A DNA stretch of 50,048 nt from an uncultured Nitrospirota bacterium (GTDB taxonomy: Bacteria; Nitrospirota; Thermodesulfovibrionia; Thermodesulfovibrionales; CALJEL01), in the NCBI GenBank assembly GCA_947085365.1, contig CAMTWD010000009.1, positions 1 through 50,048 on the forward strand. The letters run 5' to 3'. Shown here piece after piece: positions 3,873 to 48,042 of the stretch. The stretch's first letter is position 1, and each line of letters begins with the position of its first letter. The position numbers and the translations under genes are program-made. The notes under the pieces were generated by a model, which did not search any database, had not been told where the DNA came from, and saw only the letters and a list, made by a program, of their open reading frames with translations.

Positions 3873-4655
3873 AATCCTTTCAGGATGGGTATAGATATTA
3901 AATCTATCCCCTCTCATAAATCCTACAACTGTCATGCCAGCCTTTTCGGCGATGTCGAGTGCCCTTGTTGTGGGAGCCGTCCTAGAGACCACAAGGGGTA
4001 TTGACCATCGTGCACACTTACTGATCATCTCAGAAGAGAGTCTTCCACTGGCAAACATTATCTTACCGCCGAGTTTTATATCCTCAAGGACTGCATACCC
4101 GATAACCTTATCTATAGCATTGTGTCTTCCTATATCCTCAGCAAAGGCAATCAATATCCTTCCATCAGAAAGGGCTGCACTGTGGATACAACCTGTGGAT
4201 TTATATAGATCTGACCTCATCTGGAATTCATTGAATAGATTCTTCAATACTTCAGGCCTAACCCTTAAGTCCTTGTATCCTACATCCCTGATCTCCTTTT
4301 TCTCAAAGGTAACCCCTCCTGCACAACCAGAGGTAATTGTTACCTCGCCACCAAGTGCTGTTACCTCGCCACTAAGTTCAGATACCACATCCACCACTAT
4401 CTCCTCTCCGTAAACTATCTCCATCCTCTCAGCACACCAGGAGCCTTTAATAATCTCCTCTGTAAGGAGAAGTCCCACCACGAGCTCCCTCACCATCAGA
4501 GGTGTGCAATAGAGCCTCAATAGATCCCTGCCATTAACCTTTATCCTCAGGGCCTTCTCCACAGCAACAGGGTCTTCCATCTCTTCAAAGATAACATCCT
4601 TCTCCTTCAGTCTTACCCTCTTTACCTTTCTCTTCAATGTAGCATTCATCGCCAA
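3867..4655 (-). CDS. fdhD: Formate dehydrogenase accessory sulfurtransferase FdhD family protein
   Basis: Signature EDIGRHNAIDKVIGY, SGRLSSEMISK, VSRTAPTTRALDIAEKAG, NIYTHPERI. Carries two tandem 21-nt family-A copies in frame (SGEVTALGGEVTI). Confidence 0.85.
   Translation of the reverse strand: MAMNATLKRKVKRVRLKEKDVIFEEMEDPVAVEKALRIKVNGRDLLRLYCTPLMVRELVVGLLLTEEIIKGSWCAERMEIVYGEEIVVDVVSELSGEVTALGGEVTITSGCAGGVTFEKKEIRDVGYKDLRVRPEVLKNLFNEFQMRSDLYKSTGCIHSAALSDGRILIAFAEDIGRHNAIDKVIGYAVLEDIKLGGKIMFASGRLSSEMISKCARWSIPLVVSRTAPTTRALDIAEKAGMTVVGFMRGDRFNIYTHPERIL
4336..4377 (-). repeat. Two tandem 21-nt family-A copies inside fdhD
   Basis: attgttacctcgccaccaagt + gctgttacctcgccactaagt, read on the gene strand as SGEVTALGGEVTI. 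Confidence 0.9.
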
Positions 4656-12925: not shown

Positions 12926-14358
12926 TTAAAGGTGTTTTCCGTGCTATAAGGACTGAGCCTGATCCCAAGCTGCTTTAACTTTCTATAAAGGGCTGTTCTT
13001 TCAAGACCTATTGCCTCAGCCGTTTTTGAGATATTCCAGTTGTTTTCCTGGAGCCTTTTGATAATAAAGTCCCTTTCAAGGGCATCTCTGGCCTCTTTAA
13101 GGGTCTTAAATTCAAGATAGGATTGATGTTGGTGGCGAAAGTAACAGTTGAAGAGACTCGATTCCTGGCATAGTGGCGAGGTAACAGTTGGTGGTGAGGT
13201 AACAGTAAAGAGACCTGTTTTGAGGTCAGAGGCTGTAATCACCCCCTTTTGGCACATTATTACAAGCCTCTCTACAAGATTCCTCAATTCCCTTACATTT
13301 CCAGGCCAGTCGTAGGTGGATAAAGACTTAAGGGCATCCTCTGATATAGCCTTTGGGGTCTTTCCATATTCAGCAGCTATAAGCTCAAGGAAGTGCCTTA
13401 CAAGTAAAGGTATATCCTCCTTCCTTTCCCTGAGTGGAGGGACCCTCAGTGGTATGACATTTAGTCTATAGAATAGATCCTCCCTAAAGTTTCCCTTTCT
13501 CACCTCCTCTTGGAGGTCTTTATTCGTAGCAGCTATAATCCTTACATCCACCTTTATATTCTTGCTTCCACCAACCCTCTGAAACTCCCTTGTCTCTATG
13601 GCCCTCAGAACCTTTGCCTGGGCATCCATGGACATATCACCAACCTCATCAAGGAAGAGTGTTCCTCCATCAGCAAGTTCAAATTTCCCCTTTTTCCTCT
13701 CGACGGCTCCAGTAAAGGCCCCTTTTTCGTGGCCAAACAATTCACTCTCTATAAGCTCCTTTGGAATGGCAGCACAGTTGACCTCCACAAAGGGCCCACT
13801 CCGTCTTGGACTCCTTTCATGGATCAGCCTTGCCACGAGCTCCTTTCCTGAGCCACTTTCACCAGTTATGAGGACTATACTGTTGGATGAAGCCACAAGG
13901 TCTATCTTGGACCTGAGCTCTCTTATAGCTGGAGATTCTCCAATGAGTTTATACCTCTTTGTGGCATCCTCTTTAAGGGACTTAAGGGCCCCTTCAAGAT
14001 TTGCCATCTCAATTGCCCTTTTGACAGTTATTAAGACCCTTTCAAGAGATAGGGGCTTTTCAAGAAAGTCGTAGGCACCCAGTTTTGATGCCTTTACTGC
14101 CAGCTCTATTGTTCCGTGGCCTGATATCATGATCACCGGGACCTCCGGCCTTCTATCCCTCATTATCCTCAGTGCCTCTATCCCATCCATCTTTGGAAGC
14201 CATATATCAAGAAGCACAAGGTCAGCAGAATCAAGGTGTTCTAAACCTTCTTCAGCATCCTCTGCTGTTATTACCTCGTATCCTTCGTCCTCAAGGATTC
14301 CCTTGAGGCTCTCCCTTATACCCTCCTCGTCATCTATAACAAGTATGAGATAAGACAT
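12919..14358 (-). CDS. Sigma-54-dependent response regulator (NtrX/AtoC type)
   Basis: Receiver (ILVIDDEEG, LLDIWLPKMDG), AAA+ domain (GESGSGKE, ESELFGHEKGAFTGA) and C-terminal HTH (ISKTAEAIGLERTALYRKLK). Three family-A copies sit in the AAA+/HTH linker. Confidence 0.9.
   Translation of the reverse strand: MSYLILVIDDEEGIRESLKGILEDEGYEVITAEDAEEGLEHLDSADLVLLDIWLPKMDGIEALRIMRDRRPEVPVIMISGHGTIELAVKASKLGAYDFLEKPLSLERVLITVKRAIEMANLEGALKSLKEDATKRYKLIGESPAIRELRSKIDLVASSNSIVLITGESGSGKELVARLIHERSPRRSGPFVEVNCAAIPKELIESELFGHEKGAFTGAVERKKGKFELADGGTLFLDEVGDMSMDAQAKVLRAIETREFQRVGGSKNIKVDVRIIAATNKDLQEEVRKGNFREDLFYRLNVIPLRVPPLRERKEDIPLLVRHFLELIAAEYGKTPKAISEDALKSLSTYDWPGNVRELRNLVERLVIMCQKGVITASDLKTGLFTVTSPPTVTSPLCQESSLFNCYFRHQHQSYLEFKTLKEARDALERDFIIKRLQENNWNISKTAEAIGLERTALYRKLKQLGIRLSPYSTENTFNP
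13129..13206 (+). repeat. Three family-A copies (antisense to the gene) in the linker of the NtrX-like regulator
   Basis: ttggtggcgaaagtaacagt ... atagtggcgaggtaacagt tggtggtgaggtaacagt. The gene strand reads TVTSPPTVTSPL...CYFRHQ. Confidence 0.9.
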
Positions 14359-14382: not shown

Positions 14383-16548
14383 TTACCTTTCTGGCAACTC
14401 AATAACAAATATGGCCCCTCTGGGGGTGTTATCCTTTACCTTTATAAAACCCCTGTGCTCTGTTACAATCCTCTGGGCAATGGCAAGACCCAGCCCAGAA
14501 CCACCTTTTTTTGTTGTGAAATGGGGCATGAATAACTTATCTTTTATTTCGTCAGGTATACCCGGACCATCATCAGCTATAGAGACGATTATCTTTTCGC
14601 CATTAAGTTGGGAGAGGGATATGTATATATTTCCTCTGGCCTCATTGCTGTGGGTGGCGAAAGTAACAGTTTCGGTGGCGAAGGTGATTGCCTCAATAGA
14701 ATTATCCATAATATTTATGAAAACCCTCTTGATCTGCTCAGGGTCCACCTCTGCCACCACCGCCTCGTCAGGAAGACTGAGATGAATGTTTATCTCTTTG
14801 AAACCCATGTAAAGATTATATACATCCCTAAGGATATCCCGCATATCCACAGGCCTCTTTTTTATCTGGGGCATCCTGCCAAATTGCGAAAAGTCCGAAA
14901 CGAGTCTTCTTAAACTCTCCACCTCTTTTATTATTGTTTTAGTGGAACTTTCAAAGACCTCATCAAAATCACTTTCTTTATTCTGCCATTTCTTTATAAG
15001 CCTCTCTGTAGAGAGTTTTATAGGGGTAAGGGGATTTTTCACCTCGTGGGCAATCCTTGAGGCAATCTCCTGCCATGCCATTGCCCTCTGGGCATTCACG
15101 AGGTCAGTAATATCATCAAAGACTACCAGCAATCCAATAATAGAGGAACCAGTTTCCTCCCTCCTCAAGGCTGTTATAAACACCCTGAGTATAAGAGATC
15201 TCTCTTTAATATTAATCCTTATCTCTTTCTCAATCCCTCTCAATTCCTTAATCCTTATCCCTTTTATAAGGTTTTCCAGTTCTTCAGATCCAATCGATTC
15301 AAGAAGTTCCCTGTAGGATCTACCCACAAACCCTGCGGCATCTACAGAAAGGATCCTTTCTGCAGCCCTATTCATGGAGAGGATCGTGCCTGAGCCATCA
15401 ATAAAGAGTACGCCTGTATTGATGTTCTCAAGGATACTTGAGAGTCTTATCCTCTGTGCCTCGGCCTCCATATAGGATTCCTGCAGGCGCTTCTTGCCTT
15501 CTCTTAATTGGCCAACCATCGTATTAAAATTCTCGATAAGATAACCAATCTCATCATTCCTGTTCTCCTCAGGAATTATCCTTACATCAAGGTTTCCTGA
15601 GGCTACCTTCATTGTTGCCTCTGTCAATTCCCTCACCGGTTCTGTAATCTTCTTTGAAATCCTCAGGGCTGCCCAGAGTGCAAGCATTATAATAAGGAGG
15701 GTAAAAAAGCCAAAGGTCATAACAAAATTTACTCTAAGAGGGAATTTCCACTTAAGTTTTAAGGAAAGCTCTTCATAATCCTTTTTGAGATTTTCAACTA
15801 TTAGTGGAATATCCTCTTGAACCTTTAAAGAACCCTTGAGAATATATACAGGGCCATCACTATTTGGTGGCGAATGTAACAGTTGAGGATTCTTAACCCT
15901 TACGGCAGCCCTTATATATTCTCCCTCTGGAGACTTAAATACATCTGATGCCTCACCCTTTAAGAAGGCCTCCTTTGTAAGTTCATCTGTATTGGTGGCG
16001 GATGAAGCAGTTGTGAGATCAAGGATTTCCCATTTGATATCTTCTTTACCCTCCTCACCTGTTACTTCTGCCACTGACATGATACCCTTAGAAGTAGAAA
16101 GGTATCGAGCCCTCCTTTTTGCCTCAGAAAGGAGATACTCCTTCTTCTCTTCATAATATATCTTTGCCAGCCTTAAGGTATTCTCAAGGGAGCTCAGGCT
16201 TTGAGGTGTTAGCCATTTTTCAATATAACCTGTTACAAGGCCACTTCCCAGGGCAAAGAGAAATATACTTGGTAAAAGGATAAGGATCAGAAAGATACTG
16301 ACAAGCTGTATCCTGAACTTATGACCTGGTACATTCCTTTTTCTATCAATAAAAAGCCTCAGGATATTCTTACCCACATAAAATAGGAGGATCAGAAGGG
16401 CAAGGAGATTGAGATTTATTCCTAAGAGAAAGAGCATTGCATAAAGGGGTTCATTACCGAGTTTAATGAATCTCGTAAAAAGAAATATATTGACCCCCAC
16501 AAATATGGCAAGAAGAGGCAGTATCAGTAGAAGTTTATAGAACCTCAT
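14383..16548 (-). CDS. NtrY-like membrane sensor histidine kinase (HAMP-PAS-HisKA-HATPase)
   Basis: N-terminal TM helices, HAMP-like segment, PAS, H-box RIAHEVKNPLTPI, N-box NIMDNSIEA, G-boxes DDGPGIP and GGSGLGLAIA. Contains four motif-derived inserts. Confidence 0.9.
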   Translation of the reverse strand: MRFYKLLLILPLLAIFVGVNIFLFTRFIKLGNEPLYAMLFLLGINLNLLALLILLFYVGKNILRLFIDRKRNVPGHKFRIQLVSIFLILILLPSIFLFALGSGLVTGYIEKWLTPQSLSSLENTLRLAKIYYEEKKEYLLSEAKRRARYLSTSKGIMSVAEVTGEEGKEDIKWEILDLTTASSATNTDELTKEAFLKGEASDVFKSPEGEYIRAAVRVKNPQLLHSPPNSDGPVYILKGSLKVQEDIPLIVENLKKDYEELSLKLKWKFPLRVNFVMTFGFFTLLIIMLALWAALRISKKITEPVRELTEATMKVASGNLDVRIIPEENRNDEIGYLIENFNTMVGQLREGKKRLQESYMEAEAQRIRLSSILENINTGVLFIDGSGTILSMNRAAERILSVDAAGFVGRSYRELLESIGSEELENLIKGIRIKELRGIEKEIRINIKERSLILRVFITALRREETGSSIIGLLVVFDDITDLVNAQRAMAWQEIASRIAHEVKNPLTPIKLSTERLIKKWQNKESDFDEVFESSTKTIIKEVESLRRLVSDFSQFGRMPQIKKRPVDMRDILRDVYNLYMGFKEINIHLSLPDEAVVAEVDPEQIKRVFINIMDNSIEAITFATETVTFATHSNEARGNIYISLSQLNGEKIIVSIADDGPGIPDEIKDKLFMPHFTTKKGGSGLGLAIAQRIVTEHRGFIKVKDNTPRGAIFVIELPER
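14650..14690 (+). repeat. Two family-A copies inside the HATPase domain of the NtrY-like kinase
   Basis: gtgggtggcgaaagtaacagt ttcggtggcgaaggtgattg. The gene strand reads ITFATETVTFATH, directly after the N-box. Confidence 0.8.
15863..15883 (+). repeat. Family-A copy in the NtrY-like sensor region
   Basis: tttggtggcgaatgtaacagt. Confidence 0.75.
15991..16011 (+). repeat. Family-A copy, degenerate, in the NtrY-like sensor region
   Basis: attggtggcggatgaagcagt. Confidence 0.5.
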
Positions 16549-17257: not shown

Positions 17258-17743
17258 ATGGAACTTAAAACAGTCAAGATAGGTATTCCCGAGGGCTGTA
17301 ACATAATCCTCGGACAGACCCACTTTATTAAGACCGCTGAAGATCTTTATGAAGTGATTGCCACCACAGTACCGGGAGCCGAATTTGGTATAGCCTTCAC
17401 AGAGGCCTCAGGCCCCTGTCTTATAAGAACAGAGGGCAATAATGATGAGCTTATAAATGCCTGTGTGAAGATTCTTCAGGATATAGGGGCTGGTCATATA
17501 TTTTGTATCCTTTTGAGAAGGGCCTATCCAATAAATATCCTGAATCAGATAAAGGCCTGTCCGGAGGTCTGCAGGATATTCTGTGCCACTGCCAATCCCC
17601 TTGAGGTTATCGTCTGTGAGACCTCCCAGGGTAGGGGTATAATAGGTGTTATTGATGGCTTTCCACCAAAGGGAGTTGAAGGCCCTGAGGATAAGAGAAA
17701 GAGAAGGGAATTCCTAAGGAAGATAGGATATAAATTAGGCTGA
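17258..17743 (+). CDS. Adenosine-specific kinase family protein (PF04008-like)
   Basis: Family-like N-terminus (MELKTVKIGIPEGCNIILGQTHFIKT) and size. The SD is provided by GGCGAGGAGG. The TGA stop lies inside a family-C hairpin element. Confidence 0.6.
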   Translation: MELKTVKIGIPEGCNIILGQTHFIKTAEDLYEVIATTVPGAEFGIAFTEASGPCLIRTEGNNDELINACVKILQDIGAGHIFCILLRRAYPINILNQIKACPEVCRIFCATANPLEVIVCETSQGRGIIGVIDGFPPKGVEGPEDKRKRREFLRKIGYKLG

Positions 17744-17818
17744 AGGCTTAAGGCTGAAGAAAAAAGACAAAAATTATTTTTAAACTTCAGCCTATCGCCT
17801 TCAGCCTTAAGCCTAATT
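17732..17818. repeat. Family-C hairpin element, copy B, about 87 bp
   Basis: AAATTAGGCTGAAGGCTTAAGGCTGAAG - A/T loop - CTTCAGCCTATCGCCTTCAGCCTTAAGCCTAATT. Contains the TGA stop of the upstream gene. No family-A flanks. Confidence 0.8.
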
Positions 17819-18242: not shown

Positions 18243-18273
18243 TTTGTGGCGGAGTAAGTTGGTGGCGAGGTAA
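18243..18273 (+). repeat. Two family-A copies downstream of yjbQ
   Basis: tttgtggcggagtaag ttggtggcgaggtaa. Confidence 0.75.
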
Positions 18274-18366
18274 ATGAGGTTGAAGGCAGTAGGCTGAAGA
18301 AAAAAACAATAATCCTGTCTTTGTCTCTTTTCTTCAGCCTTCAGCCTAAAGCCTTAAGCCTAATTT
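18272..18366. repeat. Family-C hairpin element, copy C, about 95 bp
   Basis: AAATGAGGTTGAAGGCAGTAGGCTGAAG - loop - CTTCAGCCTTCAGCCTAAAGCCTTAAGCCTAATTT. Bracketed by GGTGGCGAGGTAA and AGTGGCGAGGTAA. Confidence 0.85.
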
Positions 18367-18401
18367 AGTGGCGAGGTAACAGTGGGTGGCAAAGTAACAG
18401 T
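18364..18401 (+). repeat. Two tandem family-A copies. The second provides the GTG start of the 285-aa ORF.
   Basis: tttagtggcgaggtaacagt gggtggcaaagtaacagt. Confidence 0.9.
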
Positions 18402-22224: not shown

Positions 22225-25200
22225 ATGCGAAGCCATTCTGAGTATGTTCCCCTACACCTACACACAGAATACAGCCTTCTTGATGGAGCAATAAAGATAG
22301 ATGAACTTGTGAAGGTGGCTTCAGAATTCCGCCTTCCCGCCCTTGCCATTACAGATCATGGAAATATCTTTGGTGCTATAGAGTTTTATGAGAAGGTATC
22401 AAAGGCTGGCATTAAACCCATCATAGGAGCCGAGGTATATGTTGCACCTGAGAGTAGATTTAAAAAACATACTGAGAGAGGAAGCACAAAAGATTCCAAC
22501 TGTTACCTCGCCACTAAGTGTGGTGAGAATGCCTATCATCTGATTCTTCTTGCAAAGGACATCTCAGGATACAAAAATCTCATGAGGCTTCTGACCCTTG
22601 CCCATCTTGAGGGCTTTTACTATAAGCCCAGGATAGACAACGACCTTTTGGAACAATATTCCGGAGGGCTCATAGCCCTCTCTTCCTGTATGAAGGGAGA
22701 GATACCCCTTCTTTTATTGAAAGGCGATATAGATGGAGCTCGCAGAAGGGCCCTTTATTATAAAAATCTCTTTGGACCTGAAAATTTTTACATTGAGCTT
22801 CAGGCAAATGGTATTCCAGAACAGGAGGAGCTCAACAAGAGGCTCGCCCTACTGGCGGAGGAGATTCATGTGGGTGTAGTGGCAACCAATGATTGCCATT
22901 ATCTGAGAAGAGAAGATGCAAAGGCTCACGAGATATTGCTCTGCATCCAGACAAATAAGACCATTAATGACACCGACAGGATGAGATTCCCGACAGATGA
23001 GTTTTATTTTAAGTCTCCTGATGAGATGATGGCGGAGTTTAGCTCAGTTCCAGAGGCAATAAGGAATACAGTTCGGATAGCCGAGAGGTGCAATCTTACC
23101 CTCGAACTCGGCAAACCCCTTCTGCCTGAATTCAGCACACCTGATGGAAGTCCCCCCGAGGTCTTTCTTGAAAGGATTTCGATAGAGGGGCTCAAGAGGA
23201 GGTTCAGGGATAAGGAGATACCCGAGAATTATCGCAAGAGGCTTCATGGGGAGCTCCAGATGATAAAGAAGATGGGATATTCCTCTTATTTTCTTATAGT
23301 ATGGGATTTCATAAGATTTGCTAAGGAGAGGGATATACCAGTGGGGCCTGGAAGGGGTTCTGCTGCAGGAAGCCTTGTGGCATGGGCACTGGGCATTACA
23401 GAGATTGACCCTATAAGGTATTCCCTCCTTTTTGAGAGATTTCTCAATCCTGAGCGGGTAAGTATGCCTGACATAGATGTGGATTTCTGCAGGGACAGGC
23501 GTGAGGAAGTAATAAGATATGTCCAGGAGAAATACGGTGTAGATCAGGTGGCACAGATAATTACCTTTGGGACCATGGCATCAAGGGCTGCTGTAAGGGA
23601 TACAGGAAGGGTGCTCGGTATGCCCTATCAGGAGGTGGACAGGATTGCAAAGCTTATTCCAGTGAGTGCTACTAAGGAGATAAATCTGAAGACCGCCCTT
23701 GAGCTTTCACCTCCACTTAAAGAATCCTATGAAAAAGACCCCAAGGTGAAAGGGCTTATTGATATAGCCATGAAGCTTGAAGGTCTCAAGAGGCATGCCT
23801 CAGTGCATGCTGCTGGTGTGGTAATAGCACCTGAGCCACTTACGGAATATACTGCCCTTTACAAGGGTTCTAAAGGCGACGAGACGATAACGACACAGTT
23901 TGACCTTGAGGCCCTTGAGAAGGTGGGGCTTATAAAATTTGATTTCTTAGGGCTTGATACCCTCACTATAATCGATAGGACAGTGAAATATATAAAAGAA
24001 AAAGAGAGGGATTTTGATCTGAACCAGATCCCCCTTGACGATAAAGAGACATACAGGTTGCTCTCTGAGGGAAGGACTGCAGGCATCTTTCAGCTTGAGG
24101 GTTCTGGGATGAGGGAGCTTCTTATGAAGTTGCAACCTGATAGATTTGATGACCTTATTGCCCTTGTGGCACTTTACAGACCTGGCCCCTTAGGAAGTGG
24201 GATGGTTGATGATTTTATAAAAAGAAAGAAAGGCCTTGTCCCTGTAGAATACGACCTGCCAGAACTTAAGGATATCCTTGATGAGACCTATGGTGTGATT
24301 CTCTATCAGGAACAGGTAATGAGGATCTCCAATGTTATTGCAGGATTCTCCATGGGTCAGGCTGATCTCCTCCGGAGGGCTATCTCAAAGAAGGATCCTA
24401 TTCTTATGGAGGAGATGAAGGAGAAGTTTATTAGGGGTGCCTTGGAGCGTGGCTATTCAGAGGAGGTTGCCAGTAGGCTTTTCGGGCTGATTGAATATTT
24501 TGGTAATTACGGATTCAATAAATCCCATTCAGCTGCCTATGCCCTTCTTGCCTATCAGACCGCCTATCTTAAGACGCACTATCCTGTGGAGTTTATGGCT
24601 GCCTCTCTTAGTGCAGAGGTTAACAAGACTGAAAAGATCATAAGGCTTATAAATGAATGCGATGCGATGGGAGTAAGGATATTACCTCCTGATATTAATA
24701 AGAGTAGCGCTGAATTTACTATTGAAGATGGTGCGATAAGATTTGGCTTAAAGGCAGTAAAGGGTGTGGGTGTAGGGGCAATTTCCGCCATCACAGAGGA
24801 AAGGGATAAGAGGCCTTTTGAGTCCTTAGAGGATTTTTTAAAAAGGATGGTGGATGATCCTACCAATTGTTCCCTCACCACCGATAGTGGCGAAGTAACA
24901 GGGGGTCTCACAGGGGGGAACGAATGTTCCCCCCTGTGTACCCCCGAAGTAACAGGGAGAAGGCGCCTCAGCAAAAAGGTTATTGAGGCACTTATAAAGG
25001 CTGGCGCCTTTGATTCCTTCGGGATTTCGAGGCAGGAGGCCCTCCAGATCCTTGAATCGCCCAGAAGCAGAAAGAGCAGGATACAGCCGAGCATGTTTGA
25101 TGCGGTTGAGGAGGGGTCAGAAAATAAAAAGGATTTCTCACTGGTACCTTCGCCACCAATCGGATTCAGCCCTGATACCCTACAACTTGAAAAGAAATTT

Positions 25201-26046
25201 GAATGGAATCAGGCTATAAATCTTGCCTATGAAAAGGAGGCACTCGGTTTTTATATCTCTGGTCATCCCCTTCAGCCCTTCAGAGAGATCCTCAGGATAT
25301 TTGGTGTAAAGGAGATAGAGGAGTTAAAGACAAAGGTGATGGGGATAGAGAGTGTTACTTCGCCCCTGTCGGTGGTGAAGGTAACAGATGAGGAAGGGCA
25401 ATATAACGAGGATCTCCTCGGATGGCAAAGTAATGGGGAAGAGGGTTTAGGTATTGATAGATCTTCAACTGTTACCTCGCCACCAAGCACTGTTTGCTTC
25501 ATTGCAGGTCTGGTACTGGATATAAAAAGACACAGGACAAGGGAAAGGAATGAACTTATGGCCTTCGTGACACTGGAGGATGAATTTGGTACTGTTGAGA
25601 TGGTGGTCTTCCCAGAGCTTTACAAGGCTTCTATGAGCATACTTGAAAAGGGCTCCCTCGTTGTTATAAGGGGTAAGGCGGACCTTTCAGAAAAGGGCCT
25701 GAAGATCATAGCAGAAGAGCTCTGGGACTTGGAGACCTTTATAAGGAATGGTCTTAATAGGTGCTCGAGATTGAATATCCACCTCGAACTCTTTAAGACC
25801 AGAAAAGAAGACCTCATGAGGCTGATAGAGATAATTAGAGAAGACTCGAGTGGTGAAGCAACAGTTGTAGGGGTAAACGGTGGTGAAGGTAACAGTTACG
25901 GAGAGGGTCTCCCCCTCTATATCGAACTTCTCATGCCTGATTGCACCGTGAGTATTCAGAGTAGATTCAGGGTGAATCCTGATTTTAGGGTTATAAAAAG
26001 GATTCAGGAATTACTGGGTAGAAACAGTGTGGAGGTGATCTGTTGA
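22225..26046 (+). CDS. dnaE: DNA polymerase III alpha subunit
   Basis: PHP domain ([18 protein letters not shown]), polymerase core ([37 protein letters not shown]) and OB-fold region. At 1273 aa it is about 100 aa longer than typical DnaE because of repeat-derived inserts. Confidence 0.97.
22497..22519 (-). repeat. Family-A copy in the dnaE PHP-domain region (NCYLATK)
   Basis: caactgttacctcgccactaagt. Confidence 0.9.
24865..24955. repeat. Composite in dnaE: reverse family-A copy, forward family-A copy, family-B G-rich palindrome (inverted orientation), family-A half copy
   Basis: caattgttccctcaccaccgat agtggcgaagtaaca GGGGGTCTCACAGGGGGGAACgaatGTTCCCCCCTGTGTACCCCCG aagtaacag. Translated as [31 protein letters not shown]. 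Confidence 0.9.
25141..25160 (-). repeat. Family-A copy in dnaE (LVPSPPI)
   Basis: ctggtaccttcgccaccaat. Confidence 0.6.
25351..25387. repeat. Inverted pair of family-A copies in dnaE ([12 protein letters not shown])
   Basis: agtgttacttcgcccctg tcggtggtgaaggtaacag. Confidence 0.7.
25466..25487 (-). repeat. Family-A copy in dnaE (STVTSPPS)
   Basis: caactgttacctcgccaccaag. Confidence 0.9.
25847..25896 (+). repeat. Two family-A copies in the dnaE C-terminal region (SSGEATV...GGEGNS)
   Basis: cgagtggtgaagcaacagt ... acggtggtgaaggtaacagt. Confidence 0.7.
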
Positions 26047-37174: not shown

Positions 37175-37214
37175 TTCAGTGGCGAAGTAACAGTCTTAGT
37201 GGCGAGGTAACAGT
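37175..37214 (+). repeat. Two tandem 20-nt family-A copies between the CBS gene and hppA
   Basis: ttcagtggcgaagtaacagt cttagtggcgaggtaacagt. Confidence 0.95.
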
Positions 37215-39458: not shown

Positions 39459-40235
39459 ATGAAGCTTAATATGTCTCATGTTCATCCCGTTAGATACAAC
39501 CTTGATACAAGGTTTCGCTTTAGATGCCATAAGGGCATTAGCTGTTTTACAAGATGCTGTAGCAATATCGATATAATGCTTACACCCTATGATATAGTGG
39601 TTCTTAAAAAGAGGTTAAGGATTTCCTCTACAGAATTTCTTGAGAGATATACCTATACCACCATAGATGAGAAGACATCCCATCCCTTTGTCTTTCTGAG
39701 GATGCTTGATGATGAGGAAAGGAGATGCCCCTTTGTCAGCCCTGATGGATGCACCATTTATGATGCCAGACCTGTCAATTGTAGATATTATCCCGTTGGT
39801 CAGGGTGTGATCAAGACCTTAAGAGGTGAAAGGCCCGTTGCAGAAGACTTCTATTTTTTCCTCTCTGAGGATCATTGCAAGGGTTTTTTTGAAGATCAGG
39901 AATGGAGTATCAGGGAATGGAGAGAGGACCAAGGGGTGGAGATTTACGATGAATTGAATATGCCCTGGAGACTTATACAGTTAAGGAAGAACCTCCCTGG
40001 TAGTATCCTCGAACCAAGGAAACAGTCCCTTTACTACATGGCCTGTTTTGATCTTGACCGATTCAGAAGGTTTATTACAGAGAGTGGATTTGTTGAGTAT
40101 TTTGAGATTCCTGATGAGAGGTTTCAGGCACTTAAGAATGATGATATTGAGCTGATGAAATTTGGGTTTGACCTTGTAAAATATATTTTGATGATCGAAG
40201 AAACCCTTAAGCCAAGGCTCCTTAAAGAGAAATAG
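39459..40235 (+). CDS. YkgJ-family (UPF0153) Cys-cluster protein
   Basis: N-terminal CHKGISCFTRCC plus RCPF...GCTIYDARPVNCRYYP, typical of the YkgJ Zn/Fe-cluster family. Confidence 0.65.
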   Translation: MKLNMSHVHPVRYNLDTRFRFRCHKGISCFTRCCSNIDIMLTPYDIVVLKKRLRISSTEFLERYTYTTIDEKTSHPFVFLRMLDDEERRCPFVSPDGCTIYDARPVNCRYYPVGQGVIKTLRGERPVAEDFYFFLSEDHCKGFFEDQEWSIREWREDQGVEIYDELNMPWRLIQLRKNLPGSILEPRKQSLYYMACFDLDRFRRFITESGFVEYFEIPDERFQALKNDDIELMKFGFDLVKYILMIEETLKPRLLKEK

Positions 40236-40244
40236 AAAACCTCA

Positions 40245-40342
40245 CTTACTGGTGAAGTAACAGTTACTCAGTCGCGAGGTAACAGTCGGGGGTACACAGG
40301 GGGAAACAAAGTTCCCCCCTGTGAGACCCCCGAGGTAACAGT
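40245..40342 (+). repeat. Composite repeat (two family-A copies, family-B G-rich palindrome, family-A half copy), intergenic copy
   Basis: cttactggtgaagtaacagt tactcagtcgcgaggtaacagt CGGGGGTACACAGGGGGAAACaaaGTTCCCCCCTGTGAGACCCCCG aggtaacagt. Confidence 0.9.
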
Positions 40343-40372
40343 CGGTTTAATAGGCGTGGTAAAGAGTGATGC

Positions 40373-41089
40373 CTAAGGAATTTGTGAGGTAGTATTGATG
40401 AGTTCTACAACATATCTGAAGAAGTTGAACGATAGGTCATCGGGCATATCAATTATTGAAGCACCGCAGATATAGTTTTGGTCTTTTTTTATGCAGTAGG
40501 CAATCCTTACCTTTATAACGGTTTGATTGCCTGCCCTTCTTGACGAAAGTCTGATATTGTAAAGACTGCCCGGTTGAAGGGCTTGATCTGTAATGAATTG
40601 GAGACCATGCTGGCTGAGATTTGTAATATGACCATTTAATATCCTCCCTTCAGCATCAATAATGAGTTCGATGTATCTTTGAAGGATTTCTGGAAGGGGA
40701 TAGCGGATTTCCTTTCTCTTTTCCTGGTATTGAGTTAGTGGAGAAGTAACAGTACTTAGTGGCGAGGTAACAGTCGGGGGTACACAGGGGGGAACATTCG
40801 TTCCCCCCTGTGAGACCCCCGAGGTAACAGTTGGTTTGAAGGAGAGTCTGAGGTCATGGGCTATCTGGATATATTTTATCCAGTTCATGATTTCATAAAG
40901 ACCCCTCACTGCTTCTTTGATTCTGATGGCGAGTTCTGGGTTCTCTGTTTCTCTCAGTATCTGCTGGAGGATTTCCGATGCGCCAAATGTCTTATTTATC
41001 AAAAGGTCAGAGAGGCATTCTATCTGTTTTTTATTATTTATAAAACAGCCCTCCATCCCCCCACATATGCGGTTACATCTTTCAAGCAC
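40373..41089 (-). CDS. PilZ-domain protein with a helical N-terminal region
   Basis: The C-terminal half has PilZ-like RxxxR and D/NxSxxG elements (RKEIRYPL, ITNLSQHGLQF). A 33-aa linker is encoded entirely by a composite repeat. GTG start overlaps the upstream stop, and the start is uncertain. Confidence 0.6.
   Translation of the reverse strand: MLERCNRICGGMEGCFINNKKQIECLSDLLINKTFGASEILQQILRETENPELAIRIKEAVRGLYEIMNWIKYIQIAHDLRLSFKPTVTSGVSQGGTNVPPCVPPTVTSPLSTVTSPLTQYQEKRKEIRYPLPEILQRYIELIIDAEGRILNGHITNLSQHGLQFITDQALQPGSLYNIRLSSRRAGNQTVIKVRIAYCIKKDQNYICGASIIDMPDDLSFNFFRYVVELINTTSQIP
40735..40831 (+). repeat. Composite repeat (same architecture as 40245-40342), in frame inside the PilZ-protein ORF
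   Basis: ttagtggagaagtaacagt acttagtggcgaggtaacagt CGGGGGTACACAGGGGGGAACattcGTTCCCCCCTGTGAGACCCCCG aggtaacagt. Confidence 0.9.
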
Positions 41090-41800: not shown

Positions 41801-42062
41801 GTCCCAGGAGTCTCTTTTTTAAGAGTTCTGGATCATAACCCTTTATCACATCAGCTATAACAAGTGTTGGATATGTCTGCTGGGGATTGTATTTTTGAAG
41901 TTCCTTTGTCATAAGCCACTGCTCTCCGCTGTCAAGGGTATCAACCTCTATGACCTCATGGGGAATCTGATTCTCATCAAGAAATTTCTTTACCTTTTTA
42001 CATACAGGACAGGTGCTCAGGGCAAATAGTGTAACCTTCCTTACTGTTACCTCGCCACCCAC
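41790..42062 (-). CDS. Glutaredoxin/thioredoxin-like small redox protein
   Basis: VTLFALSTCPVCKK CxxC motif, YPTLVI block, 90 aa. Overlaps the FTR-like gene by 11 nt. The only start candidate is a GTG inside a motif copy. Confidence 0.7.
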   Translation of the reverse strand: MGGEVTVRKVTLFALSTCPVCKKVKKFLDENQIPHEVIEVDTLDSGEQWLMTKELQKYNPQQTYPTLVIADVIKGYDPELLKKRLLGHDS

Positions 42063-42100
42063 TGTTACCTCGCCACTGGCAACTGTTACCTCACCACCAA
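42041..42100 (-). repeat. Three tandem family-A copies (periods 18 and 21 nt) at the 5' end of the grx-like gene
   Basis: ttactgttacctcgccaccc actgttacctcgccactggc aactgttacctcaccaccaa. The GTG start of the grx-like ORF lies at the junction of the first and second copies. Confidence 0.95.
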
Positions 42101-43900: not shown

Positions 43901-43920
43901 TTTAGTGGCGAGACAGTAGT
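43901..43920 (+). repeat. Family-A copy with an internal deletion, followed by a stub of the family-B palindrome
   Basis: tttagtggcgagacagtagt followed by cgggggta. Confidence 0.65.
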
Positions 43921-43941
43921 CGGGGGTATAAAGGAAGAGAG

Positions 43942-45261: not shown

Positions 45262-45279
45262 ATAGGTGAGGCTAACAGA
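45262..45279 (+). repeat. Possible degenerate family-A copy just upstream of the tnpB-like gene
   Basis: ataggtgaggctaacaga. Confidence 0.35.
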
Positions 45280-45301
45280 AGATTAAAGAGTTAAAGCAAT
45301 T

Positions 45302-48042
<2,741 letters not shown>

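Follow-up and report, generated by a model that had tools for sequence, protein, structure and literature searches.

A G+C-rich palindrome bracketed by a duplicated half-repeat in a Nitrospirota genome: a candidate minimal, MITE-like element

Our analysis concerns a 50,048-nucleotide stretch of DNA from an uncultured Nitrospirota bacterium (contig CAMTWD010000009.1, positions 1 to 50,048; hereafter the window), and within it a G+C-rich imperfect palindrome of 45 nt that we call P. Three copies of P lie in the window, in dnaE (24901-24945), between two convergent genes (40288-40331) and in the gene of a two-domain PilZ protein (40776-40820), and at all three sites P is adjoined, on the + strand, by a 17-base repeat, AGTGGCGAGGTAACAGT, referred to here as the family-A motif or motif A. 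An earlier note on this DNA had described the palindrome at these sites (dnaE, 40.3 and 40.8 kb) and likened it to a small mobile hairpin. The three copies are indeed present, and a search with the 21-nt arm CGGGGGTACACAGGGGGGAAC, allowing up to three mismatches, found it in the window only at 24926-24946 (- strand), 40287-40307 (+) and 40775-40795 (+), and never in shuffled sequences. P has the make-up GGGGGT-ACACAGGGGGGAAC-ATTC-GTTCCCCCCTGTGAG-ACCCCC. Its arms of 20-21 nt (GGGGGT(A/CT)CACAGGGGGGAAC) form terminal inverted repeats (TIRs) around a loop of 3-4 nt and pair at 19 positions, giving a 6-bp outer and a 13-bp inner stem with one or two unpaired bases per arm between the stems. The orientation of P is defined by the loop and by the asymmetry of the arms, one of which has an extra base (TACAC versus TCTCAC); we call a copy type II if the TCTCAC arm comes first when read on the motif strand, and type I if it lies the opposite way round. 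The copies of P, the half-motifs on either side of them and the genes that carry them are as follows.

22225-26046, + strand: dnaE open reading frame (ORF), 1273 amino acids; the P module contributes 18 codons to the stretch that separates the conserved residues R874 and K917
24892-24903, + strand: left duplicated target of the dnaE copy, GAAGTAACAGGG; 3' part of the full motif AGTGGCGAAGTAACAG (24886-24901)
24901-24945, + strand: P, dnaE copy; type II; 45 nt (GGGGG + 35 + CCCCC), the first G shared with the motif's terminal G
24946-24957, + strand: right duplicated target of the dnaE copy, GAAGTAACAGGG; without the motif's 5' half
40276-40287, + strand: left duplicated target of the intergenic copy, GAGGTAACAGTC
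40288-40331, + strand: P, copy between genes; type I; 44 nt, the loop being 1 nt shorter and one arm carrying a G-to-A change
40332-40343, + strand: right duplicated target of the intergenic copy, GAGGTAACAGTC
40373-41089, - strand: ORF of the two-domain PilZ protein; the inter-domain linker holds module 40743-40830 as an in-frame insertion of 30 codons
40764-40775, + strand: left duplicated target of the PilZ copy, GAGGTAACAGTC
40776-40820, + strand: P, copy in the PilZ-protein gene; type I; 45 nt; translated on the - strand
40821-40832, + strand: right duplicated target of the PilZ copy, GAGGTAACAGTT; one mismatch to the left copy

A repeat search aligned 24901-24947 with 40774-40820 as 47 nt of 100% complementarity, so that the dnaE P is the exact reverse complement of the copy at 40776, to which it is otherwise identical, yet the latter differs from its own neighbour at 40288. 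Since the copies of P are reverse-complementary while the motif keeps its strand, P is inverted in dnaE relative to motif A, just as the earlier note had read it. Folded as single-stranded DNA, the P hairpins have a ΔG of -23 to -27 kcal/mol with z-scores of -6.0 to -6.8, and none of 200 shuffled sequences equalled them. An independent Logan assembly (run ERR3478709), the only close relative at hand, agrees with the window at 99.5-100% nucleotide identity and is in the same state wherever it can be read; because of this agreement, the structure is not an artefact of assembly. One contig of that assembly (L171) reaches the intergenic P at 40288 and stops within its first half, at window position 40303.

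The 3' half of the motif (GAGGTAACAGTC, 12 nt) brackets P as a direct duplication in seven of the seven copies now known, that is, at the three window sites, where the duplication had been pointed out before, and in four further copies recovered as peptides (see below). P always occupies the same position within motif A, directly 3' of ...GAGGTAACAGTC, its junctions read ACAGTC|GGGGG and CCCCC|GAGG, and the right-hand copy of the duplication always lacks the motif's 5' half (GTGGC). The flanks read GAAGTAACAG in dnaE (24892-24901 and 24946-24955, identity reaching CGAAGTAACAGGG), GAGGTAACAGTCGG at the intergenic copy (40276-40289 and 40332-40345) and GAGGTAACAGT(C/T)GG at the PilZ copy (40764-40777 and 40821-40834). 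The canonical inserted unit is P (45 nt) plus the duplication (12 nt), which makes 57 nt or 19 codons, and five copies have a module period of 57 nt, the intergenic one of 56 nt and that in dnaE of 54 nt. This 45+12 division is the simplest consistent parse, while 47+10 or 42+15 is possible.

The additional copies came from a protein search in which the queries were six-frame translations of the module. A word-index search gave P0132, P0133 and P0134; because it missed DnaE, which local phmmer scores at 41 bits, an exhaustive profile search was also run, and this added P0136. Three of the five profile-search hits (P0135, P0137 and P0138) were unrelated low-complexity repeats and were discarded. 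The four retained proteins are NCBI singletons on contigs of 7-23 kb and most likely come from the same genome as the window. The orientation of their P was assigned by threading canonical 57-nt modules, with the following result.

P0132: flank-P-flank peptide of 25 residues; type I
P0133: flank-P-flank peptide of 25 residues; type II
P0134: flank-P-flank peptide of 24 residues; type II
P0136: DCYL-GGTQGGMNIPPCETP-DCYLAT; type II

The flanking residues EVTV, TVTS and DCYL stand on both sides in the peptide copies (four of four), matching the duplicated half-motif. Relative to the motif, three copies are thus type I (40288, 40776 and P0132) and four type II (dnaE, P0133, P0134 and P0136), and the tally of orientation against flank duplication that the earlier note had called for revealed neither a single orientation nor missing flanks nor random spacing.

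P is small (45 nt, in the size class below 500 bp) and non-coding in itself, and two of its seven copies are 100% identical. It is nevertheless translated in frame within DnaE, the PilZ protein, P0132, P0133, P0134 and P0136, and the proteins that carry it include a GH57-like enzyme and a cyclase fragment. The intragenic copies use four different frame and strand combinations, yield four peptide readings and occur in both orientations. Four of the six reading frames of the whole module are open, which would explain the survival of copies in ORFs, and the need to keep the frame open would be why the survivors are those in surface loops and linkers, where they add 18-19 residues rich in Gly, Pro and Cys. 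In an alignment of 16 DnaE homologues the insert is missing from every one and the residues that flank it, R874 and K917, are invariant; by its DnaE homologues, the nearest of which are only 67-69% identical, the window belongs to Nitrospirota/Thermodesulfovibrionales. The insert of the PilZ protein is likewise missing from all seven homologues (183-212 amino acids), although the homologues of the two proteins that lack it share only 27-69% amino acid identity with the window proteins.

Sites with the motif and without P are also found in related genomes. Motif A itself is abundant: GRGGTAACAG, with at most one mismatch, occurs 42 times in the window versus 5.4 expected, and the 13-mer GG[CT]GA[AG]GTAACAG, with at most two, occurs 51 times versus 2.9 in shuffled sequences. 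Nineteen copies fall in intergenic DNA, which makes up only a few percent of the window and in which the motif is enriched, and 32 lie in ORFs, at positions that are insertions relative to homologues and nearly all in two frames, GEVT (17) and, on the opposite strand, VTSP (10); none is in the frame that reads the motif's TAA. The motif is often tandem, with periods of 14-22 nt, and a scan for the tandem pattern returned 39 related metagenome loci (322,742 nt, GC content 0.40-0.43), in which it occurs at 0.3-2.2 copies per kb; its density is about one per kb in at least four related metagenomes. These 39 loci contained no P (at most two mismatches in the 13-nt arm core) and no strong hairpin nested between motif copies. 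Because related loci carry the motif without P, the motif is older than the P insert and, judged from its distribution, is an old, clade-wide interspersed repeat.

We consider it highly improbable that P is a selected structure, such as a signal for transcription termination or attenuation, a stabiliser of mRNA or a cruciform bound by protein, instead of mobile DNA. The hairpin is very stable also as RNA (ΔG of -32 to -40 kcal/mol for the spacer alone), the 40288 copy has the convergent genes 39459-40235 (+) and 40373-41089 (-) on either side, and a related hairpin in another Nitrospirota genome (L032, see below) lies where an efflux gene has its 3' end. However, unrelated ORFs contain at least five of the seven copies, in varied frames and strands and both orientations, and P is absent at orthologous positions in relatives. 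An intrinsic terminator in particular was rejected, as neither strand has a T-run after the hairpin and a terminator scan does not call P. We also set aside an attC site or CRISPR repeat: the AAC/GTT boxes are at the hairpin's apex instead of its base, and no array is present.

The properties described above are best accommodated, with moderate confidence, by P being a minimal non-autonomous foldback element, resembling a MITE (miniature inverted-repeat transposable element), that is moved in trans, targets motif A and generates a 12-bp duplication. A transposase encoded elsewhere would recognise the two identical ends of P, cut motif A with a stagger of 12 bp and join P in, and repair of the gaps would leave the 12-nt duplication. 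The orientation of P would be random because the two ends are equivalent, and genic copies would persist only if they preserve the frame and introduce no stop codon. The shorter period in dnaE (54 nt) may reflect a G8 run made at the left junction followed by the loss of three G, which would keep the frame. P, which has no evident benefit for the host, would most simply be selfish DNA nested in another repeat. Those checks proposed at the outset that were made agree with mobile-hairpin behaviour, which is supported, while membership of a defined MITE or insertion sequence (IS) family is not established.

It is unlikely, in our estimation, that P spreads by recombination with no transposase, an A-P-A (or A'-A-P-A) mosaic being copied into motif-A sites, especially tandem pairs, by gene conversion or template switching in the manner of bacterial interspersed mosaic elements (BIMEs). 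The abundance and frequent tandem arrangement of motif A would favour this, as would the roughly 100 nt of architecture that the two 40-kb modules share, including a GAAG motif and GGTTT, the recurrence at two loci, with 98% identity, of composite junctions between motif A and a second repeat (family B, see below), and the failure to find a transposase. Homology arms of 10-17 nt are, however, very short for conversion, and pre-existing tandem motifs vary in spacing, whereas the right-hand copy beside P is always a 3' half at a fixed 57-nt period. Recombination through direct flank repeats cannot invert P, yet both orientations are found, and the P at 40776 matches that of dnaE and not its neighbour. 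The dnaE flanks provide a further argument: both read GAAGTAACAGGG and combine two rare features, and, beyond these two flanks, only the copy at 16059 has GAAGTAACAGG in the list of roughly 40 true copies of the motif. The rare variant on both sides therefore points to one target as the source of both flanks, as predicted for a target-site duplication, and makes two independent motif copies an unlikely origin.

The two modules at 40254-40343 and 40743-40832 are themselves direct repeats of about 100 nt, 489 nt apart, in the order GAAG motif, GAGG motif, P, half motif, GGTTT. They bracket exactly the part of 40373-41089 (-) that encodes the PilZ domain, so that recombination between them would delete or duplicate the domain. 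A GAAG-type motif followed 20-22 nt on by a GAGG-type motif is a recurrent dimer (37181-37213, 40251-40285 and 40740-40773), and P occupies the second motif copy in two of these three.

One peptide copy bears on how P changes in place. In P0136 (residues 178-202) both arms carry a compensatory change, AAC/GTT to AAT/ATT at the top of the stem, and the hairpin stays perfect. As read from the sequence, this double change suggests either selection on pairing or templated correction from arm to arm. An in-place flip-flop, in which the extruded hairpin is nicked and copied anew or the template is switched between the GGGGGT/ACCCCC stems, would make orientation uninformative about transposition. P has 6-nt inverted repeats of its own at its ends, inversion of the inner 33 nt gives exactly the observed reverse complement, and the concerted change in P0136 indicates that each arm can serve as template for the other. 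We nevertheless regard this explanation as quite improbable: it leaves the dispersal of P to seven unrelated loci and the 12-nt duplications unexplained, an outer stem of six bp is very little for recombination, the loop and bulge invert together in all six copies with the canonical apex, and no locus is known in both states.

Several points weigh against a transposed, motif-A-targeted P. Only seven copies are known, four of them as peptides alone, and the two 40-kb copies may not be independent events because they share the upstream GAAG motif and the downstream GGTTT. The boundary between element and duplication is ambiguous because the ends of P merge into runs of G and C, and for the dnaE copy one has to assume either a further contraction by 3 nt or a duplication that is shorter. 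The change in both arms of P0136 points to correction within the palindrome, which could in principle flip the asymmetric bases too. The search for a cognate transposase or recombinase came back empty: Pfam scans of the 50-kb window gave no DDE transposase, integrase or Y1 transposase/RAYT, and no IS with ends matching P was found in the window or in any collection searched, leaving P with no known parent IS. P is also G+C-rich, whereas prokaryotic MITEs are typically AT-rich (PMC10969869). Searches for P elsewhere were negative as well, with no match to the exact palindrome pattern in Joint Genome Institute (JGI) metagenomes or in viral contigs, none to single-arm patterns in viral contigs, none to the P module by BLAST against plasmids and phages, and nothing in Rfam and tRNA scans of the window.

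The genes of the window are ordinary housekeeping and sulfate reduction genes, and a TnpB-like ORF is the sole mobile-element marker among them. A stub that the earlier note had correctly seen after the motif, but placed one base off (43917-43927), is as follows.

43901-43928, + strand: stub; degenerate motif, then AGTCGGGGGTA (43918-43928); possible truncated left junction of a P module

We think it very unlikely that P is of the REP/REPIN (repetitive extragenic palindromic, REP) or IS200/IS605 type, that is, single-stranded DNA moved by a Y1 enzyme (RAYT or TnpA) and inserted 3' of a short motif-A target, with the duplication carried by the element itself. The reverse strand of the motif contains TTAC, P is REP-like in being a G+C-rich imperfect palindrome of 45 nt with an asymmetric bulge, the TnpB-like gene, a marker of IS200/IS605-type elements, is 4.5 kb away (45302-46987), and GTAG stands immediately 5' of TCGGGGGTA in the stub. 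Such a mechanism, however, predicts one orientation and no duplication, whereas P inverts while the half-motifs keep their orientation. Full copies of P lack a GTAG or CGTC tag, at least five of the seven are intragenic, the window has no Y1 transposase, and the flanks of the TnpB gene show no similarity to P.

The TnpB-like ORF (45302-46987, + strand) encodes 561 amino acids, unusually long for TnpB, with a Cas12f1-like/TnpB TNB domain as the sole Pfam match. It lies in a low-GC island (31-38%) between a DUF1015 gene and the gene gap, with no TnpA, and a motif-A-like sequence, GGTGAGGCTAACAG, is found 20 nt upstream of it (45262-45281). We rejected this ORF as a partner of P, given its own small hairpins, its low GC content and flanks without similarity to P.

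A second repeat, family B, consists of inverted AGGCTGA/AGGCTTA heptad arrays around an A/T-rich centre (2346-2490, 17737-17818 and 18274-18367). Its copies are long, terminator-like intergenic hairpins and occur also in related metagenome loci (for example L086, L123 and L148). The copy at 18274-18367 (AGGCTGAAGGC heptads), which is unrelated to P, is nested in a motif-A copy at another position than P and has exactly 12 nt, GTGGCGAGGTAA, on each side (18262-18273 and 18368-18379). Because family B is also nested with 12-nt repeats, motif A is a landing pad for more than one element. The family-B copy at 2350 has the same left junction, GGCGARGTAA|ATGAGG. It is conceivable, though at present a quite unlikely generalisation, that P, the family-B hairpins and the variable-period motif-A arrays are all products of one undescribed, motif-A-specific integration system with a 12-bp stagger, in which motif A is the attachment site, hairpin cassettes are pasted either way round and excision footprints (duplicated 12-mers) multiply the motif. 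If this were true, a self-propagating landing pad would be writing in-frame peptide cassettes into the loops of even essential proteins throughout a clade of Thermodesulfovibrionales.

A loose hairpin pattern searched against the GTDB genome collection gave 57 loci, nearly all of which were unrelated G/C hairpins and were discarded; only one (L032) looks related to P. It lies in a distant Nitrospirota metagenome-assembled genome (MAG; JBBISG010000040.1, positions 1106-1145 of the locus), at the 3' terminus of a gene for an RND efflux adaptor, and forms a hairpin, GGGTCTCACAGGGGGAAAC-AAG-GTTTCCCCCTGTG, without motif-A flanks. Its second arm, also given as GTTTCCCCCTGTGGAG, is part of a structure that resembles the inner stem of P together with 6 nt of its outer arm. 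This hairpin may be related to P, or ancestral to it, in a setting free of motif A.

P shares features with several known systems. Casposons and Cas1-type integration are site-specific, with terminal inverted repeats and target duplications of 14-15 bp; the duplication beside P is best read as 12 bp, and no Cas1 or casposase gene was seen. IS1397 is an insertion sequence that targets resident repeats. Other insertion sequences with this habit have been documented, and ISPpu9, ISPpu10, ISPa11, ISPsy8 and ISRm22, which insert into REPs, share with P an abundant host repeat as landing site and the resulting nesting, but they are full-length elements with their own transposase, whereas P, a hairpin of 45 bp, has no coding capacity and its target, motif A, lacks palindromic structure (PMC1525189). 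Target duplications of about one helix turn (~10 bp), of variable length in some members, and insertion in either orientation are typical of IS4-family DDE transposons (PMC2266710); the link to P rests on duplication length, as no IS4-like transposase or matching ends were found. Prokaryotic MITEs have TIRs, target direct repeats, several copies, no coding capacity, a stable stem-loop and occasional in-frame intragenic copies, as does P, which is inserted in either orientation (PMC10969869). P differs from them in being only about 45 bp long, TIRs and loop without internal sequence, in its G+C-richness and 12-bp duplication, in using one exact position of a resident repeat and in having no known parent IS.

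Rickettsia palindromic elements (RPEs) are, like P, palindromic selfish DNA found in frame in unrelated housekeeping genes whose protein is kept (PMC10969869). They are larger (~100-150 bp), encode one conserved peptide, do not sit within a second repeat and show no clear duplication of the target, whereas the host of P is a free-living member of the Nitrospirota/Thermodesulfovibrionales and the peptide that P adds varies with frame and orientation. REP/REPIN sequences with their RAYTs and BIME mosaics (PMC2817692, PMC3116915, PMC3733652) resemble P as short G+C-rich palindromes in which a mismatch sets the orientation, embedded in a mosaic with other short motifs and found both ways round; P differs by its flanking duplications, the lack of a GTAG/CGTC tag, its mostly intragenic location, its apparently low copy number and the absence of a RAYT from the window. 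P is thus set apart from known families by its size, G+C content, long duplication, exact nesting and lack of a known parent IS.

If P moves with a 12-bp duplication, it would be close to the smallest unit that a transposase can use, two ends and a loop, and a resident short repeat could act as a safe landing pad. The 57-nt in-frame length and the open frames would let it persist in essential genes such as dnaE, whose P copy would then be a natural example of a tolerated loop insertion in a replicative polymerase and a route to low-complexity protein segments. The wider phenomenon is worth a study of its own: motif A, a short repeat that invades coding regions and may be more interesting than P itself, occurs at about one copy per kb in coding and non-coding DNA across a clade. 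A literature search with the motif sequences gave no paper with a match, and one on repeats of Thermodesulfovibrionales nothing relevant.

In DnaE, every motif-A copy lies within a lineage-specific insertion relative to homologues. One of these copies shares its loop insertion with P.

24867-24879, - strand: degenerate family-A motif just upstream of the dnaE module, in the same lineage-specific loop insertion

At least five further copies, in both orientations, lie in dnaE (22500-22512, 25352-25387, 25469-25481 and 25852-25895, with an inverted pair at 25352/25378), all in loops longer than those of homologues, and the protein has 1273 amino acids versus about 1134 typically. At the same hot spots, the DnaE proteins of close relatives have motif-derived peptides of their own (VAKVTV, VTVGD). 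Other examples of motif A in the window are at 4337-4370, 13175-13205, 18370-18400, 37181-37213 and 42044-42095, and in the related loci L058-L156. The histidine-kinase ORF 721-2346 stops on the TAA of a motif-A copy at 2337-2349 (GTG GCG AAG TAA), and insertion of the motif appears to have supplied this stop codon, replacing the original C-terminus. The nested repeats also inflate predicted protein lengths in Nitrospirota MAGs and break short-read assemblies; the Logan contig that ends in the middle of P, from a short-read assembly of the same strain, is a case of such fragmentation, which may explain why the organism is represented by short contigs only.

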